This document shows positions 11,303 to 27,129 of a DNA stretch of 64,000 nucleotides, piece after piece. Below the pieces are notes generated by a model. That model was given only the letters and a program-made list of their open reading frames with translations, was not told the DNA's origin and did not search any database. Each line of letters opens with the position of its first letter. Within the stretch, counting starts at the first letter, position 1. This DNA is from a virus (taxonomy: Duplodnaviria > Caudoviricetes): positions 4,411-68,410 of the IMG/VR virus record IMGVR_UViG_3300027809_000006; one strand, written 5' to 3'. A program made the position numbers and the translations under genes.

Positions 11303-11716
11303 ATGTTGGCAGTAGTTTATGGCACCCTCAAGAAGGGTTATTCGAACAATGGTTTCCTTCGTAATGCTACCTTTGTGCAGGGTGGTATTGTCCGTGGACA
11401 CAAGCTTTATTATGCTGGCTTCCCTGTTGCTGCCCCATCTGAGGGTGATTGCATCAAGGTTGAAGTGTGGGATATTGGTGATCCCTCTACGGACACAACA
11501 GCAGCAGCTACCTTGAAGGGTATGGACCGCCTTGAAGGCTATCATGAGGATAGTGAGAGGGGTAGCATGTACCTCCGTAGGGGTGTAACTATCTTTGCTG
11601 ACGATGGCACTCGTCTTGAAGGGCAGATGTATGTTGGCAATGCCCGTACATGGCGAGACTTCAAGGGTATGAGGGAGATGGGTAAAGATGAAACTGGCAT
11701 CTATCAATGGCCCTGA
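11303..11716 (+). CDS. Gamma-glutamylcyclotransferase (AIG2/GGCT family)
   Basis: VVYGTLKKG N-terminal motif, KVEVWDI and MDRLEGY (catalytic Glu). Confidence 0.9.
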   Translation: MLAVVYGTLKKGYSNNGFLRNATFVQGGIVRGHKLYYAGFPVAAPSEGDCIKVEVWDIGDPSTDTTAAATLKGMDRLEGYHEDSERGSMYLRRGVTIFADDGTRLEGQMYVGNARTWRDFKGMREMGKDETGIYQWP

Positions 11717-11978
11717 GGATTTTCAGGTAGGTCGTGTTATTGTACGGAATAATCCCAGACAAAGTAAGTATCGAGAAGAGTATGAAATTGTAGGTTCTCT
11801 TATTAATGGACAAATGAAATTTGAGGCTAATTCCTACGAAGGGTCAGTACTACTTTCTAAAAATACTTATAATTTTCGTGTACCTGAGGATTTCGGTACT
11901 TTAAGTGTTTGGGGTTATTACACAAAGGAACTCCAATATGACCCCATGCAACAAGGAGACAAGGATGAGGATATCTGA
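11688..11978 (+). CDS. YDPxQQGD-tail family protein 2
   Basis: FQVGRVIVR; ends LQYDPMQQGDKDEDI*. Confidence 0.8.
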   Translation: MKLASINGPEDFQVGRVIVRNNPRQSKYREEYEIVGSLINGQMKFEANSYEGSVLLSKNTYNFRVPEDFGTLSVWGYYTKELQYDPMQQGDKDEDI

Positions 11979-12123
11979 TAACATTGATCTTGAAGCTCAA
12001 CTCTTTGTTGAGGGGCGTAAAGCAGCAGCTTCGGCTTATCGTAGAGCCGTTAAGAATGTGAGGAAAGCACATTGGGTAATCAAGAGTTCAAGGGGCCAAA
12101 TACTACATACATCCAATGTGTGA
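11965..12123 (+). CDS. Small hypothetical protein
   Basis: ATG 11965 inside the tail repeat, preceded by AAGGAG; MRISDNIDLEAQLFVEGRK. Confidence 0.5.
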   Translation: MRISDNIDLEAQLFVEGRKAAASAYRRAVKNVRKAHWVIKSSRGQILHTSNV

Positions 12124-12329
12124 ACCGTATTAACAACCGAACTAATATGTCCTATAGGTATTTAACCCTTGGGGCTATTTATCCATTAGTACATGACCAT
12201 GGTCGTGTCTATAGTATTATGACACCAAGGGGTGAAACACATTACCCTAGCCGACAATTCAAAATTGTAACAAACCCTGAGCTTCGATATGATCCGAACC
12301 AACAAGGGGATAGAGATGAGGATATTTAA
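12072..12329 (+). CDS. YDPxQQGD-tail family protein 3
   Basis: Ends LRYDPNQQGDRDEDI*; TTG start after GAGGA. Confidence 0.8.
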   Translation: MGNQEFKGPNTTYIQCVNRINNRTNMSYRYLTLGAIYPLVHDHGRVYSIMTPRGETHYPSRQFKIVTNPELRYDPNQQGDRDEDI

Positions 12330-13604
12330 GTGACTGGTATTGACTTTATGGCAGGTCTTGCTGCCTCCGCTGCTGCTGATGCAAAGGGTGAAAAGAAGGA
12401 AGAAAAAACTATTACTTCAACCAGTGGTGTTAAGAAGGTGTTCTATCGTCAGGGGAATGTCTTTCAAATCATTGATGAACCGAAGTTTGATTTTCTTGAC
12501 AACCTCCCTGCTGGTACATATTCCATTTGTGCATCTATGGAAGGTTACTATCTTGAACGTCGAGATGACTTTGGTATTGACCATAAGGTGTATGGCATTG
12601 CCAACTCCCGTGCACAACGTATTATGAATACCTTTGAAGAACGTTCTGGTAATACCGGCCTTCTTCTTGAAGGTGAAAAAGGTTCAGGCAAAACACTGCT
12701 CACAAAGGTACTGGCCCGTGATTTCGTAGCTAAGGGTTATGTGTGCCTTCTGGTAAGTGGTGCCTTCTGTGGTCCGGGCTTTAATGACTTCCTTGCCAAC
12801 ATCAAACAGCCTGCATTGGTTGTTTTTGATGAGTTCGAGAAGATGTACAATGACGAGAAACAGACTCTGTTGTTGTCCACCTTTGATGGTTTGTTCAGTG
12901 CCAAGAAGCTTTTTGCTGTCACTGTCAACGACACCTACAAAGTGAATGCCTACTTCAAGAACCGTCCGGGTCGCTTTATGTATCGGTATAATTACACTGG
13001 TCTTGAAGACGAATTTATTAAGGAATATTGTGAGGACAACCTTAAAGACCAATCACAAATCCCAAAAATACTTACCTTTGCTACTGTTATGGGTAAATTT
13101 AACTTCGATATGCTCAAGCATATGGTGGAGGATATGAACCGTTATAAGGAAACAGTGGGGGATGTTCTCAAACACCTAAATATTCAAACAGATGGTAATT
13201 CCTATATTCGGGCACAACTTACCGCTATGTTTGATGATAAGGGAAATAAGATTGAACTTACTGAGTCTGATCTTAGACGAATTCATTCCATTCTTCCCTT
13301 TGGTTCATTCACCATTGAAGTTCATAAACAGATGGAAGAGGGTGATGATAAGAAGAAGGCTACTAAGGATGATGCCCTTAACCGTCTTTTGACTAGTGCC
13401 CTTAAACGTCGAAAAGAGCAGTATGGACACGAAGATGATGACGATGAGGATGAAGATGAAACAGCCTCAGTTATTATTAACGGCTCGAAGGACCTTACAA
13501 AGTTCACTCAGGAGCATATCATTTATCGTAATGATATTGGTGAATTTCATTTCCGTAAGGCTATTATGGAAGAAAAGAAACAGTTTGGAGGTATTCTTGA
13601 ATGA
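12330..13604 (+). CDS. AAA+ ATPase
   Basis: Walker A GEKGSGKT, Walker B VVFDEFEK, FKNRPGRF arginine-finger region. Confidence 0.92.
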   Translation: MTGIDFMAGLAASAAADAKGEKKEEKTITSTSGVKKVFYRQGNVFQIIDEPKFDFLDNLPAGTYSICASMEGYYLERRDDFGIDHKVYGIANSRAQRIMNTFEERSGNTGLLLEGEKGSGKTLLTKVLARDFVAKGYVCLLVSGAFCGPGFNDFLANIKQPALVVFDEFEKMYNDEKQTLLLSTFDGLFSAKKLFAVTVNDTYKVNAYFKNRPGRFMYRYNYTGLEDEFIKEYCEDNLKDQSQIPKILTFATVMGKFNFDMLKHMVEDMNRYKETVGDVLKHLNIQTDGNSYIRAQLTAMFDDKGNKIELTESDLRRIHSILPFGSFTIEVHKQMEEGDDKKKATKDDALNRLLTSALKRRKEQYGHEDDDDEDEDETASVIINGSKDLTKFTQEHIIYRNDIGEFHFRKAIMEEKKQFGGILE

Positions 13605-13828
13605 CACAAAAAATGTTCCGTATCTCTCCACTTCCCTATAAGGACGGAGAGGTTTGCGTGGTGGATATCAGTGAGGAAGGGGCTGACTGGCGTACTCTTC
13701 CTACTCCATTTCCATCTCGTGAAGAAGCAGAGAAATTCGTTGATGAGATGATTAAGGGTTTTGAAATCCTTGAAGCTTATCAAGTGAAGAACCCTCCCTA
13801 TCTGTACCCTAAAAGGTTGTTGAACTAA
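13601..13828 (+). CDS. Hypothetical protein
   Basis: 75 aa, overlapping stop/start with both neighbours. Confidence 0.7.
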   Translation: MTQKMFRISPLPYKDGEVCVVDISEEGADWRTLPTPFPSREEAEKFVDEMIKGFEILEAYQVKNPPYLYPKRLLN

Positions 13829-14319
13829 TGAACATATTTGCGACCTATGATTCCCCTATCCAAAGTGCATTAGCATTGGACGACAAACGTTTAGTGAAGA
13901 TGATACTTGAGACTGCACAGATGCTTTCTACCGCACTGCGTAGACATGGTGTGGGAAATGGGCCGCATTATAAATCAGCCTACCAGAAGCACCCTTGCAC
14001 CCTTTGGACGGGGAGGACAAGAGGTAACTTCGGATGGTTGGTTGATCATGGATTAGCCCTTTGCGCTATCTATAGCAGCATCTATAAGCGAGTCCATGGA
14101 TGTGAAGGAGTGATTCAGTTTGCGGATCGAAATAGGCATAAGGTCCCTTCTGGATCACTCCAACCGTTTGTTGATTGTACTGAGTTCAAAATACGTATCG
14201 ACTTGTCTGTTTGTGAACGATACCGTTTGTTCATGAATCTCAAGTGGACAGAACGGGATAGTAGACCACCTGTTTGGACTCGTAGGAAAACACCTGATTG
14301 GTATAAGGGGCGGACATGA
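13828..14319 (+). CDS. Pyrimidine-dimer DNA glycosylase/endonuclease V-like family protein
   Basis: MNIF...DDKRLVKMILETAQMLSTA...YKSAYQKHPCTLW family signature. Confidence 0.8.
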   Translation: MNIFATYDSPIQSALALDDKRLVKMILETAQMLSTALRRHGVGNGPHYKSAYQKHPCTLWTGRTRGNFGWLVDHGLALCAIYSSIYKRVHGCEGVIQFADRNRHKVPSGSLQPFVDCTEFKIRIDLSVCERYRLFMNLKWTERDSRPPVWTRRKTPDWYKGRT

Positions 14320-14555
14320 GTGATTGTGATGTTTGGATAGATATTGACAGGGCCACTAGTACCAAGATTAAAAGGAAGTACATTGCAGGTATAACCTCCA
14401 GTGTCGAATATCGAGGTGTATACAGTGAAGGTGACACAACTGTATATGTTCTCAGTATATACATGTGCTACGGTGAAAGGTATACTATGGACTTCCCTGA
14501 TAGGAAATCTATGGTTGAATTCATTGAACATGCATTGATGGGAGTATACGGATGA
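14316..14555 (+). CDS. Hypothetical protein
   Basis: 79 aa, ATGA overlaps at both ends. Confidence 0.6.
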   Translation: MSDCDVWIDIDRATSTKIKRKYIAGITSSVEYRGVYSEGDTTVYVLSIYMCYGERYTMDFPDRKSMVEFIEHALMGVYG

Positions 14556-14902
14556 TCATTCTTCCATATCAAAGACCTTTACTCATTCTTTTGTTAGCTC
14601 TTATATTGAGCCTTACAATTCATGGGATATTTATCCTTGGATGTTTCATTATGTATCTTGACATGATGGCTCGGTATAAAGACTACCTTCGTATTAAGGA
14701 CACAAAGTTCACAGTAGCTATGACCTACAGGTTGGGTCATTCGTGGTGTGGAAGGGGTGTCTGTTTGTATGTGTGGCCCAAAGAGGCTAAACAATTGTAT
14801 GATGCATTAGGATATCGTTGGTATCACATCTTTCCTGATGGTTTCCCTTTAGTATTCACTAAACTTTCCTTTTGGAAATCTGTTGTGGGGTACAAAAAAT
14901 GA
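14552..14902 (+). CDS. Membrane-anchored hypothetical protein
   Basis: Hydrophobic N-terminus; SWCGRGV...ALGYRWYHIFPDGFP. Confidence 0.7.
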   Translation: MIILPYQRPLLILLLALILSLTIHGIFILGCFIMYLDMMARYKDYLRIKDTKFTVAMTYRLGHSWCGRGVCLYVWPKEAKQLYDALGYRWYHIFPDGFPLVFTKLSFWKSVVGYKK

Positions 14903-15246
14903 CATTCCATATTGGACAAAAAGTTGTTTGTATAGATGATAGACCACATGCTGGTACAAATAATGGTAGGGCTGAGTGGCGTAGTGTTGAAGAAGCTCCT
15001 GTAAATGGGCAAATTTATACTGTACGAAGTGTTCACACTGATCATTTAAATAACCCTGTATTGTGGTTTAATGAAATAAGAAGATCACAATATGCCATTG
15101 ATTCCCATGGACCCAAAGTTGGTTATGGTGTTTGGAGGTTCCGTCCCCTTGTAGACGACCATAAGGGTATGACCATTCTTCGCAGCATTCTCAACGATCC
15201 ACAACAATTCATCCGTAAGGATAAGTTCGATAAGGAAAAGGTGTAA
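14899..15246 (+). CDS. SH3-like small phage protein (untagged)
   Basis: ATG 14899; MTFHIGQKVVCIDD...GQIYTVR...RFRPLV. Confidence 0.8.
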   Translation: MTFHIGQKVVCIDDRPHAGTNNGRAEWRSVEEAPVNGQIYTVRSVHTDHLNNPVLWFNEIRRSQYAIDSHGPKVGYGVWRFRPLVDDHKGMTILRSILNDPQQFIRKDKFDKEKV

Positions 15247-15602
15247 TGAACTCTCTATCTTGGGTACTGTATTTTATTGATGTGTTAGGGAACCTTCAAT
15301 TTGTTTGTACAGCCATTACAATTTTTGGTGGTTGTGGTGTATTCTTCTTAACGTGTGTATACTTTGAGGAATACGACAAACGATATGCTCGTAGTTGTGT
15401 GCATGGTATCATCCCCATCATTTGTTGGGTGTTCATCCTACTGACACTTGCCACTGCTATTGCAATTCCCTCAAAACAAACAATGCAACTAATTGCAGTA
15501 AGTGAAGCATCTGAAATGGTCGTTATGAACGAAGAAATTCGTGATGTAATGAAAGATGTCAAAGAAGTTCTTAGGACTCAACTTAGTAAATTAAAGGAGT
15601 GA
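15246..15602 (+). CDS. Membrane protein
   Basis: Two hydrophobic helices then IPSKQTMQLIAVSE, a common phage motif. Confidence 0.75.
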   Translation: MNSLSWVLYFIDVLGNLQFVCTAITIFGGCGVFFLTCVYFEEYDKRYARSCVHGIIPIICWVFILLTLATAIAIPSKQTMQLIAVSEASEMVVMNEEIRDVMKDVKEVLRTQLSKLKE

Positions 15603-15605
15603 CTG

Positions 15606-16037
15606 ATGTTTAATATTGACTTTCTTAACACACTTCCTTTCCCTATTGCCATCATCATTGTCATTACTGTTGCTGTAGGTATATTCACTACACTGTTTAT
15701 CTGTGGATTTTTAATCTCGGCATTCTTTAATCGCCAGAGAGTTCAAAGACGAGGTGACAAGTACTATGTGGTAAAAGGCAGTGGAGTTGGTAAATTGTAC
15801 TTGACTTACCATTGGGGACAACCTGATTGGACTTATTCAAGAAACTACGCTGGAATTTGGCATGATCGGGATACTGCACTAACCCATCTGACTAGACCAC
15901 CCGGTCCATACCGTAAGTGGAAACAGAAGCAAGAGTATAAGAGGGTAAGGGCAGAGCAGGAAGCTCGTCTTAAGGCTCATCAGGAGAAGATGCTTAAGGT
16001 TCGTTTGGACTTTTCCAACTACGGAGGGACTGACTAA
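15606..16037 (+). CDS. Membrane-anchored hypothetical protein
   Basis: N-terminal TM segment, AAGGAG SD. Confidence 0.7.
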   Translation: MFNIDFLNTLPFPIAIIIVITVAVGIFTTLFICGFLISAFFNRQRVQRRGDKYYVVKGSGVGKLYLTYHWGQPDWTYSRNYAGIWHDRDTALTHLTRPPGPYRKWKQKQEYKRVRAEQEARLKAHQEKMLKVRLDFSNYGGTD

Positions 16038-16077
16038 TCGGTCTTTAAAGTCTAAATCCTAAACTTCCTATGGATTA

Positions 16078-16107: not shown

Positions 16108-16137
16108 GGGTATTAACAAATAAAAGGTAGGAAATTT

Positions 16138-16629
16138 ATGAGAAACTTAGAAGATATGGTTGGTAAGACCTTTGTTGAAGTAGACGTTGGTGGAGTAGAT
16201 AATGCCTTCTTTGTCTTTCATACAGCTAGTGGAGAAAAATATAGGTTTATTCACCATCAGGATTGTTGTGAAAATGTTGATCTAATTGACTTTGATTACG
16301 ATGATCTTCAATTACTATTAAATAGTCCTATTCTTCTTGCTGAAGAACGCTCTTTGGAAAATGAACGTCCTGAAGGTTGGTATGAAGATGATGCTGAACA
16401 ATGGACCTTTTATTGTCTTGCTACTGTGAAGGGTCATGTTGACATTCGCTTCTTTGGTAGCTCTAATGGCTATTATGGTGTTGAGGTAGATGTAGAAAAA
16501 TGGGACCCTAATTTTGAAGTAAAATGGATGAATGGGATTACTAAAAAGGGACGATGGGTTCAAATACCTAAACCTTCAATATTAAAATATGATCCCACCC
16601 AACAGGGTGATAAGGATGAAGACATTTAA
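16138..16629 (+). CDS. YDPxQQGD-tail family protein 4 (conserved phage domain HHQDCCENV...WTFY...GSSNGYY plus tail)
   Basis: Recognisable widespread phage domain followed by LKYDPTQQGDKDEDI*. Confidence 0.88.
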   Translation: MRNLEDMVGKTFVEVDVGGVDNAFFVFHTASGEKYRFIHHQDCCENVDLIDFDYDDLQLLLNSPILLAEERSLENERPEGWYEDDAEQWTFYCLATVKGHVDIRFFGSSNGYYGVEVDVEKWDPNFEVKWMNGITKKGRWVQIPKPSILKYDPTQQGDKDEDI

Positions 16630-16655: not shown

Positions 16656-17333
16656 ATGGTTCAACATGCAGCAGTATCTACTACTTGCACGGCTTCTCAT
16701 ATTATCAATTGGGACATTCCTAATCTGAAGGCTGACAATCAGAAACTTCAGGTAAATGCCAGACTGTCAACTGTAGATTCTTTGATCAATCAGGGCTTCA
16801 AGCGTGACTTTGCTTTATTGTTCATCACAGTGACGGACAATCAGATGAAGCGTGGTGGACTGGATGAGTTCCTTCCTAAGTGTGGCTTTGAGCTTGCCTA
16901 TAAGGGTGAGAAGTTTGACGAAAATAAGGGTGAAGGTACACTCCATCGTCATAAAGAAACAGGTGATATTTACCTGTGGGCAACTTCTCCTAAGACCTAT
17001 CAGGAAGCTCTTGTGGCTTACAAGAAGGAACTCACGGAGTTGAAGGACAAGATCGATCCTCCGAAGAAGCCTGATCCGAAGCGTCAAGCCCTTCCCCGTC
17101 TTTTGTTGTCTGCCCTCCGTAAGAAGGGTTTTGTTGTTGACAACGCAAGTGTGGATAATCCACTGCATCAGGTTCTTACTGCTGGCAGTGAAACCAAGTT
17201 GGCCCGCTTCCTTACAGTTGAGTACGGCTGGGACCCACGCTCTATGGAGAAAACGTGGGGTGTCGCATGGACACAGAAAACCACTCGTGCTTTGAAGGAA
17301 GCTCACGAGGCATGGAAAAATGAGCTTATCTGA
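16656..17333 (+). CDS. Hypothetical protein
   Basis: 225 aa, AAAGGA SD, host-like codon use; no family recognised. Confidence 0.8.
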   Translation: MVQHAAVSTTCTASHIINWDIPNLKADNQKLQVNARLSTVDSLINQGFKRDFALLFITVTDNQMKRGGLDEFLPKCGFELAYKGEKFDENKGEGTLHRHKETGDIYLWATSPKTYQEALVAYKKELTELKDKIDPPKKPDPKRQALPRLLLSALRKKGFVVDNASVDNPLHQVLTAGSETKLARFLTVEYGWDPRSMEKTWGVAWTQKTTRALKEAHEAWKNELI

Positions 17334-17622
17334 TCCGTCATGGGAAATTGTTAATGGGAAGGACCTCCAGATAGGTGATGAGCTTATAGGGAAGTTCTTC
17401 CCTTGGGGTATAGACAAATTCTCTGTCCCTTGGATAGTTAAATCCTTACCTACTTTGACTACTCTATTTACTGAACCTCGTTGGAGAATTAGTATGAGAA
17501 ATTCAGAGTCAGGTAGTTTATTTCCTAGTTTCTCATATACCCTTGATCAACAGTTTGTCCGTAAGCTTAAAGAGTTGAAGTACGATCCAATGCAGCAGGG
17601 AGATACTGATGAAGACATTTGA
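17320..17622 (+). CDS. YDPxQQGD-tail family protein 5
   Basis: DLQIGDELIG; ends LKYDPMQQGDTDEDI*. Confidence 0.85.
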   Translation: MSLSDPSWEIVNGKDLQIGDELIGKFFPWGIDKFSVPWIVKSLPTLTTLFTEPRWRISMRNSESGSLFPSFSYTLDQQFVRKLKELKYDPMQQGDTDEDI

Positions 17623-17887
17623 AAGGATAACCCCTGATCAAATAAAAGTCGGTGATCGTATTTGTTCTAATTTGTGGGTCCCTAATGGTGGAGATAAACC
17701 ACCACCTCAACATACTCTTTTTTGGAAAGTAGTTAAGGTAGATGATTTACAGGTTTATATTACAGGTAATGGAATTGTTACTCCTGTTCACTACACAAAA
17801 GCTCAACACTCATGGTGGCGAGAAGACCTTTACCCACAACTAAAATATGATCCTATGCAACAAGGCGACAAGGACGAAGATGTCTAA
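17609..17887 (+). CDS. YDPxQQGD-tail family protein 6
   Basis: QIKVGDRIC; ends LKYDPMQQGDKDEDV*; its start codon lies inside the tail of protein 5. Confidence 0.85.
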   Translation: MKTFERITPDQIKVGDRICSNLWVPNGGDKPPPQHTLFWKVVKVDDLQVYITGNGIVTPVHYTKAQHSWWREDLYPQLKYDPMQQGDKDEDV

Positions 17888-18488
17888 ATCAGTTTATGTA
17901 GTGGGTGAAGACAAACCGGTATCCCGTATGTTCTTCGAACGTCACTACGCTATTATTAATGACCTCGAAAAGGCAGACATTATTTGTTGGATTGGTGGCG
18001 CGGATATCAATCCCGCCTTGTACGATCAGGATATTAATGAAGAGGTTGTCAAACAAATTAACAATAAACATGATGAACGTGATTTAAAGGCTTGGCAAGA
18101 TAGTCGTCCTGATCAGTTCCTTGTGGGTATCTGCCGTGGTGGACAGTTCCTTAATGTAATGAATGGTGGTTCCCTTTATCAGCATGTCAGTGGACATAAC
18201 ACTCCCCATGATATTCATGATACTCTATTTGGTGAAGAGGTAAGGGTTAGTTCTTCCCATCACCAATTGATGATCCCTACAAAAGATGCTGAAACCATCG
18301 CTTATATTGAGGATCATGGTTGGAATTTCACTGGTGAAAGGGGATTTGAAGCTCGTCCTAAAATTGAATCAGAGGTTCTCTGGTACGACCACTCACGGTC
18401 TTTGTGTTTCCAAGGACACCCCGAATGGTATTCCCCTGCCAGTACGCAGGATTATTTCTTTAGAGTTCTGGAGAAACTTTATGGTTGA
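17880..18488 (+). CDS. Class I glutamine amidotransferase / peptidase C26-like
   Basis: GGADINP, nucleophile elbow GICRGGQ, SSHHQ, FQGHPE (Cys-His-Glu triad); ATG 17880. Confidence 0.9.
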   Translation: MSKSVYVVGEDKPVSRMFFERHYAIINDLEKADIICWIGGADINPALYDQDINEEVVKQINNKHDERDLKAWQDSRPDQFLVGICRGGQFLNVMNGGSLYQHVSGHNTPHDIHDTLFGEEVRVSSSHHQLMIPTKDAETIAYIEDHGWNFTGERGFEARPKIESEVLWYDHSRSLCFQGHPEWYSPASTQDYFFRVLEKLYG

Positions 18489-19389
18489 TTACAAGAATGT
18501 ATGGAACGGTCGTCGTCATGCTTATATCTTTGCTACGGATGATGGTGTCATCCACGAACGTCTCGCCCTCCCGTGCTACGGAGAGTTGCGGAAATACGAA
18601 AGTACTCATACTGGTGACTGCACTCAGCCCTTAGATGGCAAGCCGGGTGATCTTCATTACCCCTTCCCTAAGCAAGGTAATCCGGTAGGTGTTATCTTCC
18701 CTTTCAATAATGATTGTGGAATGCAACACAACGATGGCAGTAAAACCGACATTATGTTCAAAGGGTTCTTTGGTGCTGAAAGCCCATGGCTCGGAAGAAT
18801 GGAAACTAATCGTACATTCCATCTTCTCAATGGTCGTATTCAGGGAGTTGAGTTCAAAGATGCTAACTTTGACCCTACGGTTATTGTTAACTTGTGTAAA
18901 TGTTTTCGCACTAACCTTGCTCGTGCAGGGGAATACGTAAAGCTTCTTGAAAATGGTCTGAATGTGAAGGAAGCTATTGCTGCTATCCTTCTTCATGGTG
19001 GTCGTATCGAGGCTGGTCTTTCTCAGCCGGGTGGGTACACTGTTGCTCACAACCTTTCCCTCAAGCGTCTATTTGCCGCACAACCTAATGATCATACTGG
19101 TGGTCTTTTCAAAGATCGTATCGATTATAATAGAAAGAGGATGCAGGATGTTTTCCAATACGATGAGACGCCTGTTGAGGGCTACGGATGGTTCTACAAA
19201 GGAATGCAAAAAGCTGGCTCTCCTGTATACCGGGGGCAAGCTATCGAAAACTTCAGCTACAAACGTTTTACTGACCGGGTGCAGCAAGTCTTCGCAGATC
19301 GCATCAAGCAGGAAAAGGACCCTGTACACGTTTCATACATCTGGACAACCACGAAGGGTGTAACCAATGATACCGTTAAAAGTAGGTGA
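18481..19389 (+). CDS. Hypothetical protein within the ligase cluster
   Basis: ATG 18481 (MVDYKNVWNGRRH) overlapping the previous stop; about 302 aa. Confidence 0.75.
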   Translation: MVDYKNVWNGRRHAYIFATDDGVIHERLALPCYGELRKYESTHTGDCTQPLDGKPGDLHYPFPKQGNPVGVIFPFNNDCGMQHNDGSKTDIMFKGFFGAESPWLGRMETNRTFHLLNGRIQGVEFKDANFDPTVIVNLCKCFRTNLARAGEYVKLLENGLNVKEAIAAILLHGGRIEAGLSQPGGYTVAHNLSLKRLFAAQPNDHTGGLFKDRIDYNRKRMQDVFQYDETPVEGYGWFYKGMQKAGSPVYRGQAIENFSYKRFTDRVQQVFADRIKQEKDPVHVSYIWTTTKGVTNDTVKSR

Positions 19390-19609
19390 CAGAGTAGAAG
19401 TCATATCCAGTGATATAGGACACAGAGAATTTATTGGTAAAATTGGTACTGTAATTAAGTGTAAAAATGGTAGTGGTTTTGACGATCTTTCTGCTGTTGA
19501 AATGGATAGTGGAGAAACGATTGTTATGTTTACTTACCGTTTTAAACCTATTGTGACTGAACTTAAGTACGACCCTTCACAACAAGGGGACAAAGATGAC
19601 GACATTTAG
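19367..19609 (+). CDS. YDPxQQGD-tail family protein 7 (KOW/SH3-like)
   Basis: LKVGDRVEVI...GKIGTVI; ends LKYDPSQQGDKDDDI*. Confidence 0.88.
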   Translation: MIPLKVGDRVEVISSDIGHREFIGKIGTVIKCKNGSGFDDLSAVEMDSGETIVMFTYRFKPIVTELKYDPSQQGDKDDDI

Positions 19610-19853
19610 TGTTGGTGATCGTGTAAGATATGAATATTACAATCGTCCTAATCATAGGTGGAATGGTATGATTGGTACAGTTACAGGATTTAGAGGTAGT
19701 AATGTAACTGTAAGTTGGGATAAAGGTTCTCGTTTATTAGATGAATCTCCTGATGAAGATTTCTTTTGTCACGTTCCTTGTAATCTTACAATATTAAACC
19801 TTGAATTAAAATATGATCCCACCCAACAGGGTGACAGAGAGGAAGATATCTAA
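19596..19853 (+). CDS. YDPxQQGD-tail family protein 8 (KOW/SH3-like)
   Basis: FSVGDRVRY...GMIGTVTG...VTVSWD; ends LKYDPTQQGDREEDI*. Confidence 0.88.
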   Translation: MTTFSVGDRVRYEYYNRPNHRWNGMIGTVTGFRGSNVTVSWDKGSRLLDESPDEDFFCHVPCNLTILNLELKYDPTQQGDREEDI

Positions 19854-20960
19854 ATGTGTGGACTTTTTGGAGTGGCCGGTCCCGGCTTACAGATGCCTGA
19901 CCTCAAAATCCTTAAGGACTTGGGGACAGTAAGTATGCTTCGTGGTACGGATGGTGCTGGTATTTTCCAAATCCGTTCCAATAGCAAGCATTACTCTCAG
20001 GAAGAAGGTTACAAAACTTGGGGTAACTGGATTGACCTTATGGGTGATGTGGAACGGAAGAAGTCTTCTCGTCTTATTCATTCAGTTAGTGTCGATGTGG
20101 TTATGTGTCATGTCCGTGCTGCCACTCGTGGTGCACTTAGGGATGAAAACTCTCATCCGTTTGCTTTTTCAAATCTGGTAGGTGCACACAATGGCACTCT
20201 CAAGGATAAGCGATATGAACATGTCTCAAAGACTGACAGTGAGCTTATGTTTGCTGATATCAACAATCGTGGTATGGAAGCAGTCCTTACTGAACTCGAC
20301 AAAGACTCTGCGTTTGCAGTCTCTGTGTTTGATCGTAAGCGTCAGGTGCTACGGTTTGCCCGTAACGAATTGCGTCCTCTTGCTTTTGCTTTTCTTAAAG
20401 ACCGTGGTGTAATGTATTGGGCATCCGAAAAGGATATGCTCAAGTATGTTCTCTATCGTGCTGGTGAAGAAGCATTATTTTTTAACCTTCGGGCAAATAA
20501 GATTGTTTCACTTAATCCTGAAATGATTACCAAAAAGAATATTGAGGATGGCCCATTGGTTAAAATCCTTAAGTGTGATGCTGAATTGGATCGTCCCCTT
20601 CCTACAACTTATCAACGAATTGAAGATGCTCGTAAGGCACGAGAAGAAGCAGAAGCTAAAAAAGCTGCTGGTGTTGAACCAACAGAAACTAACACTACTC
20701 AGATAACTACACAACAGATGAGTAATGTTGTTCCTTTTGTTCCTAACAAGGAGGATAAGGAAACAAAAAAGGTTGGTTCAACAACACGATTCTCGGTGGA
20801 GAGTCAGTATCGGAAATGTTCTTGCGGTGGCAGGACACTCGATCTTCTAGCACAAAGTCTGGCCAAGAGGGGGAAACACACTAAGTTTACATACAACTCT
20901 GATACTAATGTTTTCCGTTGTGATGGATGCCCAACAGATGCCAATGTTCAAACAGGGTGA
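19854..20960 (+). CDS. Class II (Ntn) glutamine amidotransferase
   Basis: N-terminal MCG nucleophile, RGTDGAG, HVRAAT, HPF, AHNGT, TDSE. Confidence 0.92.
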   Translation: MCGLFGVAGPGLQMPDLKILKDLGTVSMLRGTDGAGIFQIRSNSKHYSQEEGYKTWGNWIDLMGDVERKKSSRLIHSVSVDVVMCHVRAATRGALRDENSHPFAFSNLVGAHNGTLKDKRYEHVSKTDSELMFADINNRGMEAVLTELDKDSAFAVSVFDRKRQVLRFARNELRPLAFAFLKDRGVMYWASEKDMLKYVLYRAGEEALFFNLRANKIVSLNPEMITKKNIEDGPLVKILKCDAELDRPLPTTYQRIEDARKAREEAEAKKAAGVEPTETNTTQITTQQMSNVVPFVPNKEDKETKKVGSTTRFSVESQYRKCSCGGRTLDLLAQSLAKRGKHTKFTYNSDTNVFRCDGCPTDANVQTG

Positions 20961-21186
20961 TCGTATTTGGTCCATCATTAACGGTCGCCGAGAAGAAGCA
21001 ACCGTTGATCGTGTTTCAGATGACCGATTACACAGAGGTCGTACAGTTGTATGGGCTTATTGGGATAGTGATCAAAAACAAGGTAAAGATCGTGTAGGTC
21101 CATATTATACTGATATAGAAAGTTGTTATCATATAGAACTTCAATATGATCCCACCCAACAGGGTGATAGGGATGAAGACATTTAG
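20938..21186 (+). CDS. YDPxQQGD-tail family protein 9 (SH3-like); start approximate
   Basis: MFKQGDRIWS...VVWAYWD; ends LQYDPTQQGDRDEDI*. Confidence 0.85.
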   Translation: MPMFKQGDRIWSIINGRREEATVDRVSDDRLHRGRTVVWAYWDSDQKQGKDRVGPYYTDIESCYHIELQYDPTQQGDRDEDI

Positions 21187-21196
21187 GAGATAAAAG

Positions 21197-21973
21197 ATGT
21201 CTATTACTGCAATGTTCTGCTACAATCAGGCTTCGGAAGGTGGTAGCAATCTGGCTGACGCACTTGGTATCCGCCGCATCAAGCACGGTAACTCCAAGTT
21301 TGTTCCTTCTGCTTCGAAGACTATCCTTAATTGGGGTGCTTCTTCTGAACGGTTCCCGGCTGCATATCGTGTGTGCAATATTCTGAACCACCCGGATCGG
21401 ATTGACACTGCCTGCAACAAAACTCGATCATTCCAAGCTTTTCAGGCAGCGGGTGTGTCCATTCCTGAGTTCACCACAGATCGTGCAACAGCTGTTCAGT
21501 GGCTGGAAGCTGGTAATATGGTGTTTGCTCGTACCCAACTGACGGCACATAGTGGTCGTGGTATTGAGATCATGGATCCCCACCATCCTGAGACATGGGA
21601 AGTGACTGCCCCTCTGTATGTCAAGTACATCCCCAAGAAGGATGAATATCGCATCCATGTATTCCGTGGTAATGTGATTGATGTACAGCGGAAAGGTCTT
21701 CGTGCTGAACTTCAGGGTACTGAAGGTGTAAACTTCAAGGTACGTAACCTTGCCAATGGCTTTGTTTATGTTCGTAATGATGGTCGTCAGACACCTGCTC
21801 GTGTACTTGAAGTAGGTCGTGCTGCTGTGGCTGCCCTTCAGTTGGACTTTGGTGCTGCTGACATCATCTATAATGAACGTAATAACCAAGCCTTTGCACT
21901 TGAGGTTAATTGTGCACCCGGCTTGACTGGCACTACTGTTGACAATTATGCACAGGCACTTTCACAGGTGTAG
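21197..21973 (+). CDS. ATP-grasp peptide ligase (RimK-like, phage type)
   Basis: ILNWG, CNKTRSF, HSGRGI, YVKYIPKKDEYRIHV, LDFGAADII, LEVNCAPG. Confidence 0.92.
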   Translation: MSITAMFCYNQASEGGSNLADALGIRRIKHGNSKFVPSASKTILNWGASSERFPAAYRVCNILNHPDRIDTACNKTRSFQAFQAAGVSIPEFTTDRATAVQWLEAGNMVFARTQLTAHSGRGIEIMDPHHPETWEVTAPLYVKYIPKKDEYRIHVFRGNVIDVQRKGLRAELQGTEGVNFKVRNLANGFVYVRNDGRQTPARVLEVGRAAVAALQLDFGAADIIYNERNNQAFALEVNCAPGLTGTTVDNYAQALSQV

Positions 21974-21974
21974 T

Positions 21975-22214
21975 ATGTTTAAGGTAGGTGATGAAGTAAT
22001 TGCTGATGCTAGTTTCGGAAGGACTATTAGTTGTCATATAACAAATATAACCAATAGTGATACAGTAATTTGGGGAACTTGGTATTGGGACAATGATCCT
22101 GCAAGGGTAAATCCAACCTATGGTTTCATGAATGCATGTGATTGTCAATTAGTAAGTGCAATTGAATTAAAATATGACCCCTTACAACAAGGGGATAAAG
22201 ATGAGGATATTTGA
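21975..22214 (+). CDS. YDPxQQGD-tail family protein 10 (SH3-like)
   Basis: ATG 21975; MFKVGDEVIA...VIWGTWYWD; ends LKYDPLQQGDKDEDI*. Confidence 0.88.
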   Translation: MFKVGDEVIADASFGRTISCHITNITNSDTVIWGTWYWDNDPARVNPTYGFMNACDCQLVSAIELKYDPLQQGDKDEDI

Positions 22215-22216
22215 GA

Positions 22217-22846
22217 ATGCGCCAGAAGTATAAGGGCGAGGACATTCGTGCTCGTCTTCATGGTACTATCCTTCGATACAAGGGTGTACCTTACCTTGCA
22301 GACGTTGATGCAGGGGGTATGGTCGGTATGATTGACATCTGCACGGGCAATTTGATTACTCGTGTATATGGTGATGATGAAGGTATTGACATTAGTTCGA
22401 TTAATATTGGTTTTGTCAATGTCATTGATCCTGACTATAAAACTGCTGTTTATCTTAAGCGGGAACCCCTCCGTCGATTTAAGCAGCCGTTGGAAATTGA
22501 CTTCCTTACTCAGAAGCCACTCCGTCAGGGTATGACCTCCATCCCTAAAAATAAGATTATGGCTGCTGGTTTTGTTGACGCAGTGTTGGGTAAGTTTCCT
22601 CCATTGGAAGAAGCTATCAACTTAATCACAAAAAGAGGTTGGCACTCTGTTGCTCTCTCTCGTGATGTGGCAATCAAGCGGGAAAGTGATTCCCTCAAGG
22701 TTTACTTGAAGGATACTGAGGTTGGCTTTATGAAGATTGGTGATAAGGATCGTAAGCTCATTGTCCCCACGTCTGATGTAAGTTATTATCACTGCACCTA
22801 TTTGAATGACCTTAAAGGTTGGACTGTCATCGAAGGTATTAAATAA
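22217..22846 (+). CDS. Hypothetical protein within the ligase cluster
   Basis: DIRARLHGTILRY...INIGFVN...VALSRDVAI; ATG 22217 after GAGGA. Confidence 0.75.
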   Translation: MRQKYKGEDIRARLHGTILRYKGVPYLADVDAGGMVGMIDICTGNLITRVYGDDEGIDISSINIGFVNVIDPDYKTAVYLKREPLRRFKQPLEIDFLTQKPLRQGMTSIPKNKIMAAGFVDAVLGKFPPLEEAINLITKRGWHSVALSRDVAIKRESDSLKVYLKDTEVGFMKIGDKDRKLIVPTSDVSYYHCTYLNDLKGWTVIEGIK

Positions 22847-23889
22847 TGACACAGCTTGCAACGTTTTATGACATCTTTCGTCAACTCAAGGTATACGGTG
22901 GAGACCGTGTCCGTGGGGATTATGGTGTTGAGATTGAAACTGAAACGGAAAAGAAATATGAGTATCCCAACCTTAAGTATTGGGGTGCCACAAAAGATAA
23001 TAGCCTTCGTGATTGGGGGGTAGAGTATGTTCTAAGGTCTCCTATGTCCATTCCTGAGCTGGAAAAAGCTCTTGTGGAATTTGATATTTGTGAGAAGAAG
23101 TACAAATTTAAGAAGGGTTCTATTTCTACCAGTGTGCATGTCCATGTCAATATGCTTAATGAAACTCCCCTGACATTGGCGAACTTCCTTACAACATATG
23201 CACTGATGGAAAATCTTCTTATCCGTTATAGTGGACCTGATCGTCTATCCAATTTGTTTTGTCTCCCCATTTGTGATGCAGAAGGTGTGAATACAAACTT
23301 GGTGAACATTCTTTCGAGTATAAATCGGAACCAATATACCAAGCTTCGTATTAGTGTGGATAAGTGCAAGTATGGAGCATTGAATCCTGCTACTTTGACT
23401 ACACTTGGTACGGTGGAAATCCGTTCATTCCGTGGTGAGACTGACACAAAAGTTATTCAGAAGTGGCTTGAAATCATTGACAAGATGAAGCAATTCGCTC
23501 GTCAATCTAAGCTTACCCCTCCTGATATCCTTAAGTTGTGGAAAGACAATCGTTCCACCTTGGTCAATATTATTTTCCAAGAGTATGCTGCTGAACTTCG
23601 TTATCGTGATCCTTTAACCAAGAAGGATATCACTGATGACCTTATTCGGCAGAATCTTAAGTATGCAGCAGACTTGGCTTGTGTCTCCAAAGATTGGACT
23701 AAGTTTGGTGTGTATCGTATCAAGCCGGTTTATAAAGAAAAGATCAAGGGTGCACTAGAAGAACTTTCCAATACCTACTTCAAGGTTCCATGGGATAGTC
23801 TGCCTTACCATGAACGTCTCGTTGTCATTGAAAAGTATCACCTTCTGAACCCTAACGTTCGTGTGGTGGATGCTGATGGTGATATTTGA
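22846..23889 (+). CDS. Putative amidoligase (glutamine synthetase-fold COOH-NH2 ligase)
   Basis: YGVEIETE, DNSLR..GVEYV, TSVHVHVN, TVEIRSFRG motifs. Confidence 0.88.
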   Translation: MTQLATFYDIFRQLKVYGGDRVRGDYGVEIETETEKKYEYPNLKYWGATKDNSLRDWGVEYVLRSPMSIPELEKALVEFDICEKKYKFKKGSISTSVHVHVNMLNETPLTLANFLTTYALMENLLIRYSGPDRLSNLFCLPICDAEGVNTNLVNILSSINRNQYTKLRISVDKCKYGALNPATLTTLGTVEIRSFRGETDTKVIQKWLEIIDKMKQFARQSKLTPPDILKLWKDNRSTLVNIIFQEYAAELRYRDPLTKKDITDDLIRQNLKYAADLACVSKDWTKFGVYRIKPVYKEKIKGALEELSNTYFKVPWDSLPYHERLVVIEKYHLLNPNVRVVDADGDI

Positions 23890-24172
23890 TTTAGGCACCA
23901 GAGTACGTCTTAAATGTGATAGTACACAAGGTGGTGATTACCCCGGTGAATATGGTTTGAAAGATCAAACCGGGGAAATTGTCAGTGCATTTGATACTTC
24001 TGATGGCACATACTTAGTACAATTTGATGAACCTGTCCCTTATAATACTGCGAATGAATGGGATGATGAAGATCAAAGTTGGTGGTGCAAAGTAGAAGAA
24101 CTTGAATTTGAAACACTCCCAATGTTAACATACGACCCTAATCAACAGGGCGATAAGGAAGAAGATATTTAA
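23876..24172 (+). CDS. YDPxQQGD-tail family protein 11 (SH3-like); start approximate
   Basis: IFDLGTRVRL...QTGEIV...YLVQFDE...WWCKVEELE; ends LTYDPNQQGDKEEDI*. Confidence 0.88.
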   Translation: MVIFDLGTRVRLKCDSTQGGDYPGEYGLKDQTGEIVSAFDTSDGTYLVQFDEPVPYNTANEWDDEDQSWWCKVEELEFETLPMLTYDPNQQGDKEEDI

Positions 24173-24173
24173 A

Positions 24174-24890
24174 ATGGCTACAATTCGTATTGGTGCAGAC
24201 CCCGAGGGTTTTATTGTAAATCCGGCTGGTGATTTTATTCCAGCCTTTGGTTTTGTGCCGGGTGACAAACAGAACCCCTTCAAGTTGGATGGTGGTGCTG
24301 TACAGGTGGATGGACTGGCAGTTGAGTTCAACATCGATCCTGTCACTAATGAGGATGACTTCAACAAAAATATTGTTAAGGTTGTTGCTCAGATTGACGA
24401 AATGGTTAAACAGGTCGATAAAGACTTGGACCTCCGTTGGACCCCTGTGGCCCGGTTCCGTCAGGCACAGTGGGATATGTCTCCTGAACAGCAGAAGATT
24501 CTTGGTTGTGATCCTGACTACAATATCAGGGGTGATGTTAATCCTAATCCTTCTGAGAAGTTGGAGAATGAACCTCTCCGTACTGCTGCTGGTCATATCC
24601 ACATTGGTTGGTTGGACAATCTGATTGAAGATGTCAATGATAATGCACACTTCCAGTTCTGCCTTGAAATTGCTCAGGGATTCTATGATGGTCGTCTTTC
24701 CACATATGTACCACACACACAGGAAGAGAGTGAACGGTTGTCCTATTATGGTCATTCCGGTGCATGGCGTCCGAAGAAGTATGGTGTAGAACTTCGTGCA
24801 CCTTCCAATCTGTGGGTCCGTTCGGAAGCTTCGCGTAAGTTGATCTTCAACGAGACAAGGAAACATTTCAATGAGCTTACAGGTCTTTAA
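24174..24890 (+). CDS. phiEco32-like COOH-NH2 ligase type 2
   Basis: IGADPEGF, DGLAVEFNI, GCDPDYN, LRTAAGHIHIG, RPKKYGVELRAPSN. Confidence 0.92.
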   Translation: MATIRIGADPEGFIVNPAGDFIPAFGFVPGDKQNPFKLDGGAVQVDGLAVEFNIDPVTNEDDFNKNIVKVVAQIDEMVKQVDKDLDLRWTPVARFRQAQWDMSPEQQKILGCDPDYNIRGDVNPNPSEKLENEPLRTAAGHIHIGWLDNLIEDVNDNAHFQFCLEIAQGFYDGRLSTYVPHTQEESERLSYYGHSGAWRPKKYGVELRAPSNLWVRSEASRKLIFNETRKHFNELTGL

Positions 24891-25146
24891 CACTTGGGAT
24901 GAAATCAATATCGGGGATGAGATATCATGGGGTGATGGTAAAAGTCATCAACTTAAAGTGACAGGAGTACCAAAGGGAGGTAGATCATTACTTACAGGTA
25001 TTCATAAGAAGGGTAAGTTTGGAGAAAACCCCGGTTGGTCTACTATTATAGCTGGTGATCTTGATAGTCTACTAGGTTGGAAAAAGATTATCACGGAACT
25101 AAAATATGATCCTATGCAACAAGGCGACAAGGACGAAGATATCTAA
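24871..25146 (+). CDS. YDPxQQGD-tail family protein 12
   Basis: INIGDEISW; ends LKYDPMQQGDKDEDI*. Confidence 0.85.
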   Translation: MSLQVFNTWDEINIGDEISWGDGKSHQLKVTGVPKGGRSLLTGIHKKGKFGENPGWSTIIAGDLDSLLGWKKIITELKYDPMQQGDKDEDI

Positions 25147-26294
25147 TGTGTGTTATCATTACACTGGCCGCAGGAGCGACTATTAATAAACTCCAATTGT
25201 TTAATGCAGTTTATAACAACTGGCATGGCTTTGGATTGATCCTTCGAGATGGCAACAATAAGATTGAGCTTATCAAAGAGTTCAGTCCTGAAGGTACTGA
25301 CCCGGAGAGAGTATGGAAGCTTCTTGAAGATAATAAGGATTGCATTCGTTATCTTCACGTCCGTCACTCTACTAAGGGTGCACAGGATGAGACGAATGTT
25401 CAGCCCTTTGAAGTTTACAACTCGTCATCACGGCAAGTGTTCTTCATGCATAATGGTACACTGACTGGCTTTGGTGCTGTCACTACCTATGGTAATCAGA
25501 ACCCAACTGGTAAGTCTGATACTCTTGACTTCTGTGAAAAGATTCTTCAACCGGCTCTCCTTCGTTGGTCTGGTGAAAATGGTAAGGCTGACTATACAGA
25601 CGATTTATTCTGGAAATTGGTTTGTGACAAACAGTGGACATATAACTCCACAGGTCTGTTTGTTTCCAACGATTTAGATATGAAGCGCGTCGGTAACGGT
25701 TGGTCTCTTTATAAGCATCCTGATGATAGTAGTGAAGGTGAAGTATGGACCTCCAACACTTCCTATTATGATAAGGTTCAGCGTGGACCAATGTTTCAAA
25801 AGTTGGAAACAGAACGCAAGGCACGAGAAGAAGCAGCAGCGGCACAAAAAGCAGCGGAAAACAAGAAGGAGGTAAACAGCGGCGGTTCTTCTGCACTTTA
25901 CGAAGACCTGAACGATGATATTCCCTTTCTTGGAGGCCATGGACACGGGTTTACTCTGGGCAACTCCGATGGTGTCAAGGAATGGGCGAACTCGAACTGT
26001 AATAAAAGCACCAAAGTACTCAATGCTATCCGAGATACTATCGATAGTTGGGATTTGGACGATCCTGATAACCTTGCTCGCCTTTGCAACGTTACATATG
26101 ATGAATGGGTAGCTGTTGTAGAAGCTGAGAATGAGTTCACTATCGCTGCTCTCCTTGAACATCTGTCGGATGAATTCCACAAGCTCAACCTTCGTAAGCG
26201 TCTTCTCGAAAAGAAGAACGACCGTCAGGAAGCTCGTATCCGTGAGTTCAATATCACAAAGAAGAATGAAGAGAATGTCTCAAAGGTTGCTTAA
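25146..26294 (+). CDS. Second class II (Ntn) glutamine amidotransferase
   Basis: N-terminal MCVII, NWHGFG, HVRHST, QPF, MHNGTL, SDT. Confidence 0.88.
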   Translation: MCVIITLAAGATINKLQLFNAVYNNWHGFGLILRDGNNKIELIKEFSPEGTDPERVWKLLEDNKDCIRYLHVRHSTKGAQDETNVQPFEVYNSSSRQVFFMHNGTLTGFGAVTTYGNQNPTGKSDTLDFCEKILQPALLRWSGENGKADYTDDLFWKLVCDKQWTYNSTGLFVSNDLDMKRVGNGWSLYKHPDDSSEGEVWTSNTSYYDKVQRGPMFQKLETERKAREEAAAAQKAAENKKEVNSGGSSALYEDLNDDIPFLGGHGHGFTLGNSDGVKEWANSNCNKSTKVLNAIRDTIDSWDLDDPDNLARLCNVTYDEWVAVVEAENEFTIAALLEHLSDEFHKLNLRKRLLEKKNDRQEARIREFNITKKNEENVSKVA

Positions 26295-26868
26295 GAGTGA
26301 TGATCATCTCATTTCGTTGAGTGATACAACACGAAACACTCCTGATTGGATGGAACTTAAAAGGGATACTCGTGATGAGTTCCCTATCTTTGTTACTGGA
26401 AGTATGCGCCGTTGGAGGGAGAATGCTCGCTTCCTCTCCGGTTGTAATTATTATGGGATGGCTCAGACATGGGGTGAAAACTTCATCTTGACTCGTCCTA
26501 GAGCACGACCCGGTCAGAACACCGTACCTGATCCGATTATGTTCCAGTTAGATAGTGACAAAACTAATTGGGAACAAACGGGTGAGTACTTCGATCAGGA
26601 TCGTTTGAGAGGTGTCGAGGGGGAGGTGTACGGTGTACCCCTTCGTAAATTAGCCCAACTAGATATTCATGAACAAAATGGTGATGGTGTCAATAGGCAG
26701 AAGCTTTATGTCAATCTCATCAACCCCAAACAGAAGCGTGCAAACGTTCGTTGCTTTGCCTATGTTGCCGATGTAGATGAGTATATGAAGACATATGCCC
26801 CTTCGGATAACCTTGAATATTGTGGCACTATCGCTACAGGTGGAGGTAAGGAGTTTTATCGTGCTTAA
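26275..26868 (+). CDS. Second gamma-glutamylcyclotransferase-like protein; start approximate
   Basis: IFVTGSMRR, VEGEVYGV, LAQLDIHE, C-terminal RQKLYV..CFAY pattern. Confidence 0.7.
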   Translation: MSQRLLKSDDHLISLSDTTRNTPDWMELKRDTRDEFPIFVTGSMRRWRENARFLSGCNYYGMAQTWGENFILTRPRARPGQNTVPDPIMFQLDSDKTNWEQTGEYFDQDRLRGVEGEVYGVPLRKLAQLDIHEQNGDGVNRQKLYVNLINPKQKRANVRCFAYVADVDEYMKTYAPSDNLEYCGTIATGGGKEFYRA

Positions 26869-27119: not shown

Positions 27120-27129
27120 GGATTTTAAA

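Follow-up and report, generated by a model that had tools for sequence, protein, structure and literature searches.

Organisation of the locus

Our analysis concerns a window of 64,000 nucleotides (nt), bases 4411-68410 of the single 68,410-bp virus record IMGVR_UViG_3300027809_000006 (Duplodnaviria, Caudoviricetes), in which a cassette of amide-bond enzymes is interleaved with small open reading frames (ORFs) sharing one C-terminal peptide, hereafter the tail (type A among the tail types described below). Scanning all six frames of the window, and of the entire genome, revealed that exactly fourteen ORFs, here called tagged, end with (E)L-x-YDPxQ[Q/N]GDx[DE][DE]D[I/V]-stop, all of them on the plus strand between positions 9977 and 27730, with stop codons at the right-hand coordinates listed in Table 1; no further copy, whole or degenerate, was detected elsewhere in the 68,410 bp.

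Pfam and PHROG searches bore out every enzyme call of an earlier reading of this DNA (hereafter the original prediction), namely two gamma-glutamyl cyclotransferase (GGCT)-like GGACT proteins, an AAA ATPase, one class I and two class II glutamine amidotransferases (GATases), an ATP-grasp ligase, an Amidoligase_2 protein and a COOH-NH2 ligase, the last named from its PHROG family and giving no Pfam match at E <= 0.01. The reported interleaving of tagged ORFs with these enzymes also held: 10 of the 11 small ORFs in the interval 17320-27730 are tagged, versus 4 of 48 elsewhere on the plus-strand arm, an enrichment (Fisher p = 1.6e-7) computed on a rough gene map. With its RimK-like ATP-grasp and two further carboxylate-amine ligases (the COOH-NH2 ligase and Amidoligase_2), the block qualifies as a phiEco32-type amidoligase cassette, nearly all gaps of which are occupied here by the ten tagged ORFs. 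The class I and class II (N-terminal nucleophile, Ntn, with Cys1) amidotransferases and the GGCT/AIG2 proteins lie in one co-directional block adjoining a primase-helicase gene, and the gene order is the same in the phages CW02, TC6 and RHph_I3_11. We know of no substrate for this cassette, nor did the literature searched provide one. Cassettes of this type were reportedly described by comparative genomics in 2009 by Iyer, Abhiman, Burroughs and Aravind, in Mol Biosyst 5:1636.

Table 1 Tagged ORFs and cassette genes of the window, from rough ORF maps made for this analysis (window coordinates; E-values follow the Pfam or PHROG family)
Feature	Position	Strand	Remarks
Tagged ORF 1	9977..10270	+	97 amino acids (aa), ends ...LQYDPNQQGDTDEDI; ATG 10257 of a lipoprotein-like ORF inside its tag codons
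GGACT no. 1 (gamma-glutamyl cyclotransferase, AIG2-like)	11303..11716	+	Pfam PF06094, E 1.6e-14
Tagged ORF 2	11688..11978	+	96 aa
Tagged ORF 3	12072..12329	+	85 aa; stop abuts GTG of the AAA ATPase gene
AAA-type ATPase	12330..13604	+	phrog_2376, 1e-93; outside the conserved set
Tagged ORF 4	16138..16629	+	body DUF7448 (Pfam 1.6e-23) / phrog_2650 (4.7e-37)
Tagged ORF 5	17320..17622	+	100 aa; 14-nt overlap with ORF 6
Tagged ORF 6	17609..17887	+	92 aa, ends ...DEDV; GATase-I start 17880 within its last codons
Class I glutamine amidotransferase / peptidase C26-like (GATase-I)	17880..18488	+	PF07722 2.7e-12; phrog_7218 3e-37
302-aa protein, no family match	18481..19389	+	homologues in relatives only, almost all of the type A clade
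Tagged ORF 7	19367..19609	+	80 aa
Tagged ORF 8	19596..19853	+	85 aa; predicted KOW/SH3-like barrel (1-66) and unstructured tail (67-85)
Class II (Ntn) glutamine amidotransferase no. 1	19854..20960	+	Pfam GATase_6 1.7e-12; starts Met-Cys
Tagged ORF 9	20938..21186	+	start 20938, or 20908
RimK-like ATP-grasp ligase	21197..21973	+	phrog_2599 7.3e-74
Tagged ORF 10	21939..22214	+	91 aa
Universal cassette protein, 211 aa	22211..22846	+	phrog_11055; likely start ATG 22217
Amidoligase_2-family ligase	22846..23889	+	PF12224 4.7e-9; phrog_7469 6.5e-48
Tagged ORF 11	23861..24172	+	103 aa
Phage COOH-NH2 ligase (glutamine-synthetase-fold carboxylate-amine ligase, by PHROG name)	24174..24890	+	phrog_3815 1.2e-56
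Tagged ORF 12	24871..25146	+	91 aa; TAATG overlap with the next gene
Class II (Ntn) glutamine amidotransferase no. 2	25146..26294	+	Pfam GATase_4 5.7e-7; starts Met-Cys
GGACT/AIG2-like cyclotransferase no. 2	26275..26868	+	PF06094 1.8e-5; 25.7 bits vs cut-off 22.8
Tagged ORF 13	27103..27480	+	125 aa; QN variant
Tagged ORF 14	27467..27730	+	ATG 27467 inside ORF 13 tail codons

Homologues of the ATP-grasp are present in 313 phage records, those of PaP3, phiEco32, TC6, CW02 and RHph being 31-66% identical to the window protein, and a near-identity DNA search of the cassette over 50,697 phage records returned a single, weak match, in RHph_I3_11. The 211-aa universal cassette protein was found in all 15 genomes compared; its AF2 model (pLDDT 90.5) predicts an N-terminal Tudor/KOW-like barrel followed by an alpha/beta domain, for which Foldseek gave no match and VIA-align a best Z of 4.4 covering the N-terminal barrel only. 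The 302-aa protein had no Pfam, PHROG or PDB sequence match. Amidoligase_2 itself ends ...VVDADGDI, and its relatives ...VDLTEDV or ...VDAQGDL, an acidic and hydrophobic-terminated ending with a faint likeness to the tail. Among the neighbouring genes, the ORF that starts within tag 1 (10257-10469) has a lipoprotein-like signal (...LLVTFGC...), and a pyrimidine-dimer DNA glycosylase-like protein (13828-14319; Pfam Pyr_excise, 7.4e-8) lies among untagged small genes.

Conservation of the tail as a C-terminal peptide

The codons that encode the tail are freely chosen, with five codons used for Leu, four for Gly, four for Pro and all three stop codons, GAA being commoner than GAG at its Glu codon. 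Over 13 tag codons, pairwise identity reaches 95.8% at codon position 1 and 89.3% at position 2 and falls to 45.4% at position 3, with 472 synonymous versus 197 non-synonymous codon differences among the copies. Selection acts on the peptide and not on the DNA that encodes it, and these codon-position identities rule out a DNA element, either promoter or repeat, as its identity.

All fourteen tails of the window sit at the extreme C-terminus, and this position is retained far beyond this genome. When 1.84 billion representative proteins were searched with a profile built from 50 tails, 239 matched at E <= 1e-3; among the 150 matches listed, 149 are proteins of 40-165 aa with the match at their last residue, the lone exception being P0064, a protein of 1123 aa with an internal match. 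The original prediction had treated the Gln pair of the tail as invariant. This describes 13 of the 14 copies of this genome, in which the second Gln is kept, but neither tag 13, which reads QN, nor the relatives, where QM, QA, QV, QN, QS and even G-E replace it.

The proteins that carry the tail have little else in common. The AF2 model of tagged ORF 8 (mean pLDDT 79.8) predicts a small beta-barrel over residues 1-66, whose best structural match by VIA-align is the KOW domain of Spt5 (Z 8.2, root-mean-square deviation 2.9 Å over 59 residues), followed by the KOW domain of NusG and by ribosomal and Tudor barrels. Residues 67-85 are modelled without secondary structure (pLDDT 55-58), so that the tail is predicted to be disordered and separable from the folded body. 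The body of tagged ORF 4 is a DUF7448 domain, whose fold is unrelated to the other bodies, and most window bodies stripped of their tail match just 1-3 of 150 tag-bearing representatives. Because the bodies are unrelated and find so few matches once the tail is removed, the tail is best described as a module borne by many different bodies. We also considered that each tagged protein could be an adaptor for the enzyme encoded downstream. This proposal is weakened by the observation that related genomes do not place orthologous bodies beside the same enzyme, the body upstream of the ATP-grasp gene in the related genome G001 matching ORF 2 of the window and not ORF 9.

Gene junctions

The tagged genes are tightly packed against their downstream neighbours, the next start codon lying within -14 to +11 nt of the stop at 11 of the 14 tag ends. 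An identical 14-nt overlap was observed at four junctions, after tags 1, 5, 7 and 13 (next starts at 10257, 17609, 19596 and 27467), where GAT-GAN-GAY-ATT-stop is also read as ATG-ANG-AYA-TTT, so that D-[DE]-D-I-stop of one protein overlaps M-x-[TI]-F of the next. Elsewhere, GATGAGGAT supplies a GAGGA 9 nt upstream of start 22217. Such translational coupling at the tag ends can explain how tagged genes spread at junctions and why they are located between the enzyme genes. It cannot account for 13-16 conserved residues with free third codon positions.

Tail types in related phages and other lineages

Pattern scans of viral contigs recovered the tail only in multiple copies, in phages of 66-70 kb whose primase-helicase is 58-74% identical to that of the window, and the cultured Rhizobium phage RHph_I3_11 carries it as well. 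Inside each genome of this type A clade, the copies of the tail vary together: QQGD is the form of the window genome and of G001, G002 has QMGD in 11 of its 12 counted tails and QQGD in the twelfth, and the others read QA, QV or QM (L061), QN or QS (L062), and QQP or QQR (L063). A further relative, L060, has two tail subtypes, one of which reads D-P-N-G-E-G-E without any Gln. As both Gln positions vary among relatives, the QQ pair is a local feature of the window genome. In L060 (IMGVR_UViG_3300023118_000023) the two subtypes, ...YDPTQQGETDDDI and ...YDPNGEGETDDDI, stand side by side, with at least 13 copies in all.

Multi-copy endings of other sequence were recovered by clustering the last eight residues of all ORFs in 80 viral loci around ATP-grasp homologues. 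At least four ORFs with one common ending, and up to 20 copies, were found in 12 of the 80 loci, the endings being, besides type A, LLEENV in Salinivibrio phage CW02, [IV]SLENK, FSLENE, IVENE, xQMENK and the basic FKGNK. There is one tail type per genome, rarely two; types differ between lineages, and their DNA is not homogenised. The sole regularity that we noted across types is a penultimate Asn, replaced by Asp in type A. In the tree of the ATP-grasp proteins, type A forms one clade and the ENK/ENE types another, and CW02 and the FKGNK phages are placed among untagged lineages. In two FKGNK phages (loci L095 and L103; genomes G010 and G011), 6-10 small proteins end in the basic ...[NST][KT]FKGNK, and tails are absent from the relatives nearest to these phages in the ATP-grasp tree. 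The literature searched yielded no description of the tails; they appear to be undescribed there, the cassette being already known.

Distribution of tails relative to the cassette

The original prediction proposed to ask whether phages with the ligase cluster also carry multi-copy tags, and the response is divided. Multi-copy tails occur in 12 of the 80 cassette loci versus none of 117 random viral loci (0.95 Mb; largest shared-ending cluster, three members), a difference (p = 1.2e-5) that takes no account of phylogeny. Since all tag-bearing phages belong to related podophage groups, this association is confounded by common descent. Conversely, tags are absent from 68 of the 80 cassette loci, as well as from PaP3, TC6, phiEco32 and Phriendly. 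Given that most cassettes are untagged and given the number of phages with ATP-grasp homologues, the cassette must have another primary substrate. Dissociation in the other direction is less complete, as the tail occurs in genomes without a detected cassette (see below) but in no cassette-free phage so far. Of the refuting outcome named by the original prediction, half has thus been reached.

In the nine tagged genomes that are complete, the cassette span encloses only about half of the tags; of the others, some adjoin primase, DNA polymerase and exonuclease genes. An all-against-all comparison of 15 complete genomes yielded no family present in all nine tagged and absent from the six untagged ones, and no enzyme gained together with the tags was found in this comparison; the gene families limited to tagged genomes, found in six of them, follow phylogeny. 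The AAA ATPase encoded at 12330, a candidate tag reader, has no homologue in the tagged relatives G001, G002 and RHph_I3_11, and was ruled out on this ground.

A host enzyme bearing the tail

A 36-nt degenerate pattern of the tail was scanned over one genome each of 185,579 species. It matched multiple times in contigs of metagenome-assembled genomes (MAGs) that are evidently phage genomes, and as a single chromosomal copy in several Rhizobium species. These single matches are the last residues of proteins of 490-540 aa ending ...YDP[ATN]Q[ASI]GDTDDD[IV]; in one tail-bearing protein scanned against Pfam, histidyl-tRNA synthetase (HisRS) and anticodon-binding domains extend up to residue 476 of 530, and the tailed gene heads a hisS-hisZ-hisG operon. 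The pattern is present in 10 of 173 Rhizobium species genomes (~6%), versus none for the reversed control. The portability of the tail thus extends from KOW-like barrels, DUF7448 and other phage bodies to a bacterial HisRS. The host tails are of the QAGDT subtype, as in Rhizobium phage RHph_I3_11. A single query did not find the phage-type ATP-grasp in five tail-bearing Rhizobium genomes, and, among four species examined, three (L297, L298, L300) have a GC-rich hairpin element instead of a coupled gene after the HisRS tail. On these two grounds, the HisRS tail would be kept both without the cassette and without translational coupling.

In the Rhizobium chromosomal contigs L295, L297, L298, L300, L301, L305 and L307, HisRS ends in a linker of ~27 residues followed by ...YDPxQxGDTDDD[IV], and in L307 the tailed HisRS gene is followed by hisZ and hisG. 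On a 237-kb contig of Rhizobium sp. 16-488-2b (L304), a chromosomal ORF of 72 aa (3814-4032), with no Pfam match, ends ...YDPTQAGDTEDDV; it may be what is left of a prophage, or another tail carried by the host. The MAG-binned contigs L296, L299, L306, L294, L302 and L303 hold 2-13 tail copies each and resemble type A phage genomes, three of these entries (L296, L299, L306) corresponding to QFPW01000021.1, a phage-sized sequence of 67,886 bp labelled as a Rhodovulum sulfidophilum MAG.

A putative recognition peptide with a proposed single reader

We give roughly even chances to the reading in which the tail serves as a portable recognition peptide, disordered and C-terminal, for which one shared and co-evolving partner would be the reader. 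The 13-16 residues would form a short linear motif with a free carboxylate, grafted onto unrelated small early proteins, mostly KOW/SH3-like barrels, and one common putative partner would bring these different effector bodies to the same site or to the same fate. The role of this partner could be to dock the proteins or to act as a protease adaptor; under the second option the tail would be a degron, a special case of recognition. Tagged genes would have propagated by insertion of small cassettes between genes of the early/middle arm, each in translational coupling with its downstream neighbour, and their interleaving with the amidoligase cassette would follow from its location in the same arm. 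A single reader is suggested by the occurrence of one tail type per genome, specific to the lineage and maintained without homogenisation of the DNA. From these sequence comparisons, we infer that one reader exists and that it is none of the amide-bond enzymes. As no phage gene is specific to the tagged genomes and as HisRS carries the tail, this reader is more probably to be sought in the host, or among those phage proteins that are universally conserved.

Several observations weigh against this recognition peptide. Among phages, multi-copy tails were found only where the cassette is present (12/80 versus 0/117), and inside the window the tags are enriched within the cassette (10/11 versus 4/48), so that a functional link to the enzymes may yet exist. 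The penultimate Asn of five other tail types, matched by Asp in type A, hints at chemistry over mere docking.

Alternative readings

The same observations favour a second reading, in which the tail would be the substrate of the cassette, with one of the three ATP-dependent ligases or an Ntn amidotransferase modifying or extending it, or joining it to an amine of a protein or of the cell wall, and with the GGACT and C26-like proteins as erasers, in a manner resembling Pup or the modification of tubulin and ribosomal protein S6. RimK and tubulin-ligase-type ATP-grasp enzymes act on free acidic C-termini, those of S6 and tubulin, which the free, flexible and acidic end of the type A tail resembles by analogy. 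Isopeptide-forming residues of pilins and of the HK97 capsid alternate between Asp and Asn, as does position -2 across tail types, although this is an analogy only. The penultimate Asp/Asn or the terminal carboxylate would be more likely to react than the Gln pair. We nevertheless regard this substrate reading as unlikely. The Gln pair is replaceable, the FKGNK tail is basic, and the tail of this clade ends with Ile/Val where the S6 and Pup systems have Glu or Gln. Most cassettes do without tags and thus need another primary substrate, around half of the tags are encoded away from the cassette, no extra enzyme comes with them, and HisRS retains its tail in Rhizobium genomes where one query found no phage-type ATP-grasp.

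These points also bear on the central claim of the original prediction, which cast the QQ pair and acidic terminus as the missing substrate of the cassette, for deamidation, isopeptide ligation or polyglutamylation. This chemistry finds no backing in our comparison, in which unrelated tails occupy the same place in other lineages; the link between multi-copy tails and cassette phages is real.

A more elaborate variant, which we consider improbable, sees the tail as a covalent conjugation handle, whose conserved penultimate Asp/Asn or terminal carboxylate would be activated by the ligases or Ntn amidotransferases to join a panel of small KOW-like proteins to amines of host targets, as an analogue of pupylation with GGACT and C26-like erasers, the HisRS tail being then a host decoy or counter-measure.

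The tail could also be mainly a by-product at the nucleic-acid level, GAN-GAN-GAY and the stop serving as Shine-Dalgarno sequence, spacer and overlapping start, and the peptide having no reader. We accord this a slight probability. The 11 tightly coupled junctions, the four identical 14-nt overlaps and the GAGGA upstream of start 22217 are what it would predict; against it, conservation spans 13-16 residues, far past any ribosome-binding site, with free third codon positions (45% identity) and a preference for GAA over GAG at the Glu codon. Three tags (stops 11978, 16629 and 27730) moreover precede gaps of 26 to about 94 nt, the HisRS tail mostly precedes a hairpin in place of a coupled gene, and tail types differ sharply between lineages, which ribosome-binding sites do not.

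Both this translational reading and the one that follows fit worse than covalent modification by the cassette. Some ATP-grasp systems of ribosomally synthesised and post-translationally modified peptides (RiPPs) have multi-copy precursors, and by analogy the many copies of a conserved core beside ATP-grasp and other ligases, with the Asp-Pro bond and the invariant Tyr, Gly and Asp as putative processing sites, could evoke precursor scaffolds whose C-terminal core is cut off and used by the cassette for a gamma-glutamyl-type metabolite, copy number raising the yield. This is very improbable, as the bodies are folded and diverse domains and not leader peptides, Pfam and PHROG reveal in the cassette neither a RiPP-type protease nor a RiPP-type transporter, the family matched by the ATP-grasp is RimK-like and not that of macrocyclases, the cassette is common without any precursor, and the tail is present on a 530-aa housekeeping enzyme. 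The leader-core organisation of graspetides or microviridins, in which Ser/Thr/Lys pair with Asp/Glu, is likewise not recovered in these proteins, whose sole candidate nucleophile, at position -5, is K, R, T, Q or L, and the RiPP-like system suggested by the original prediction is therefore not retained.

Significance

For a cassette that is spread over so many phages and still lacks a substrate, this clade offers a concrete and testable candidate, and the comparative data indicate the likely outcome. That one lineage-specific tail recurs on up to 20 early proteins per phage, and again on HisRS in the genus that is probably the host, suggests a hub not yet described, for which phage and host would compete. 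The identity of the putative reader would give a function to dozens of small 'hypothetical' early proteins together.

Comparison with known systems

Compared with the phiEco32-type cassette, this clade has the same GATase-I, Ntn GATase-II, COOH-NH2 ligase, uncharacterised ~200-aa protein, Amidoligase_2, RimK-like ATP-grasp and GGCT genes, in the same order and in the same position upstream of a primase-helicase gene. It differs by an extra GATase-II, an extra GGACT and the 302-aa protein, and, unlike phiEco32, PaP3, TC6 and Phriendly, by the tagged small ORFs held in its gene junctions.

In the Pup/PafA/Dop system, the modifier ends Gly-Gly-Gln/Glu and its terminal residue is the ligation site. 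The likeness lies in a disordered tag (here by prediction), in glutamine-synthetase-fold carboxylate-amine ligases and amidohydrolases encoded nearby and, in this genome, in a neighbouring AAA ATPase. The Pup-like system put forward by the original prediction is at odds with the tails themselves, which have no C-terminal GGQ or GGE: all those of the window end D-I or D-V, with Gln at -9/-8 where it is internal, non-conserved and replaceable, and the tag is fused to folded proteins instead of being itself a free modifier. No cassette protein matched the Pup-ligase family in Pfam at E <= 0.01, and, unlike the dedicated unfoldase of Pup-type systems, the AAA gene at 12330 is not conserved with the tag. 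Acceptors of RimK/S6-type C-terminal glutamylation end Glu-Glu; the tail is acidic and free as they are, but it ends with Ile/Val, and with K, E or V in the other tail types.

Short terminal peptides also direct unrelated proteins to a common destination, as do encapsulin or microcompartment targeting peptides, PTS1 and ssrA-type degrons. The tails resemble them in being short, terminal, lineage-specific and carried by unrelated proteins; theirs are read by one receptor. They differ in that no compartment, receptor or protease is known to go with the tails, and in the location of the tagged genes, in the early/middle arm and not among structural genes.

Acidic C-terminal docking tails are known from replication proteins, such as the C-terminal tip of Escherichia coli SSB and those of T7 gp2.5 and gp4. 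Like these, the type A tail is a short, acidic and probably disordered handle, conserved as a peptide, with a hydrophobic end and a free carboxylate. It is distinguished from them by its motif, YDPxQxGD...DI, and by the non-acidic tails of other lineages. The arrangement is moreover inverted, since there one tail serves many readers, whereas here many unrelated proteins carry one tail, which would imply a single reader.

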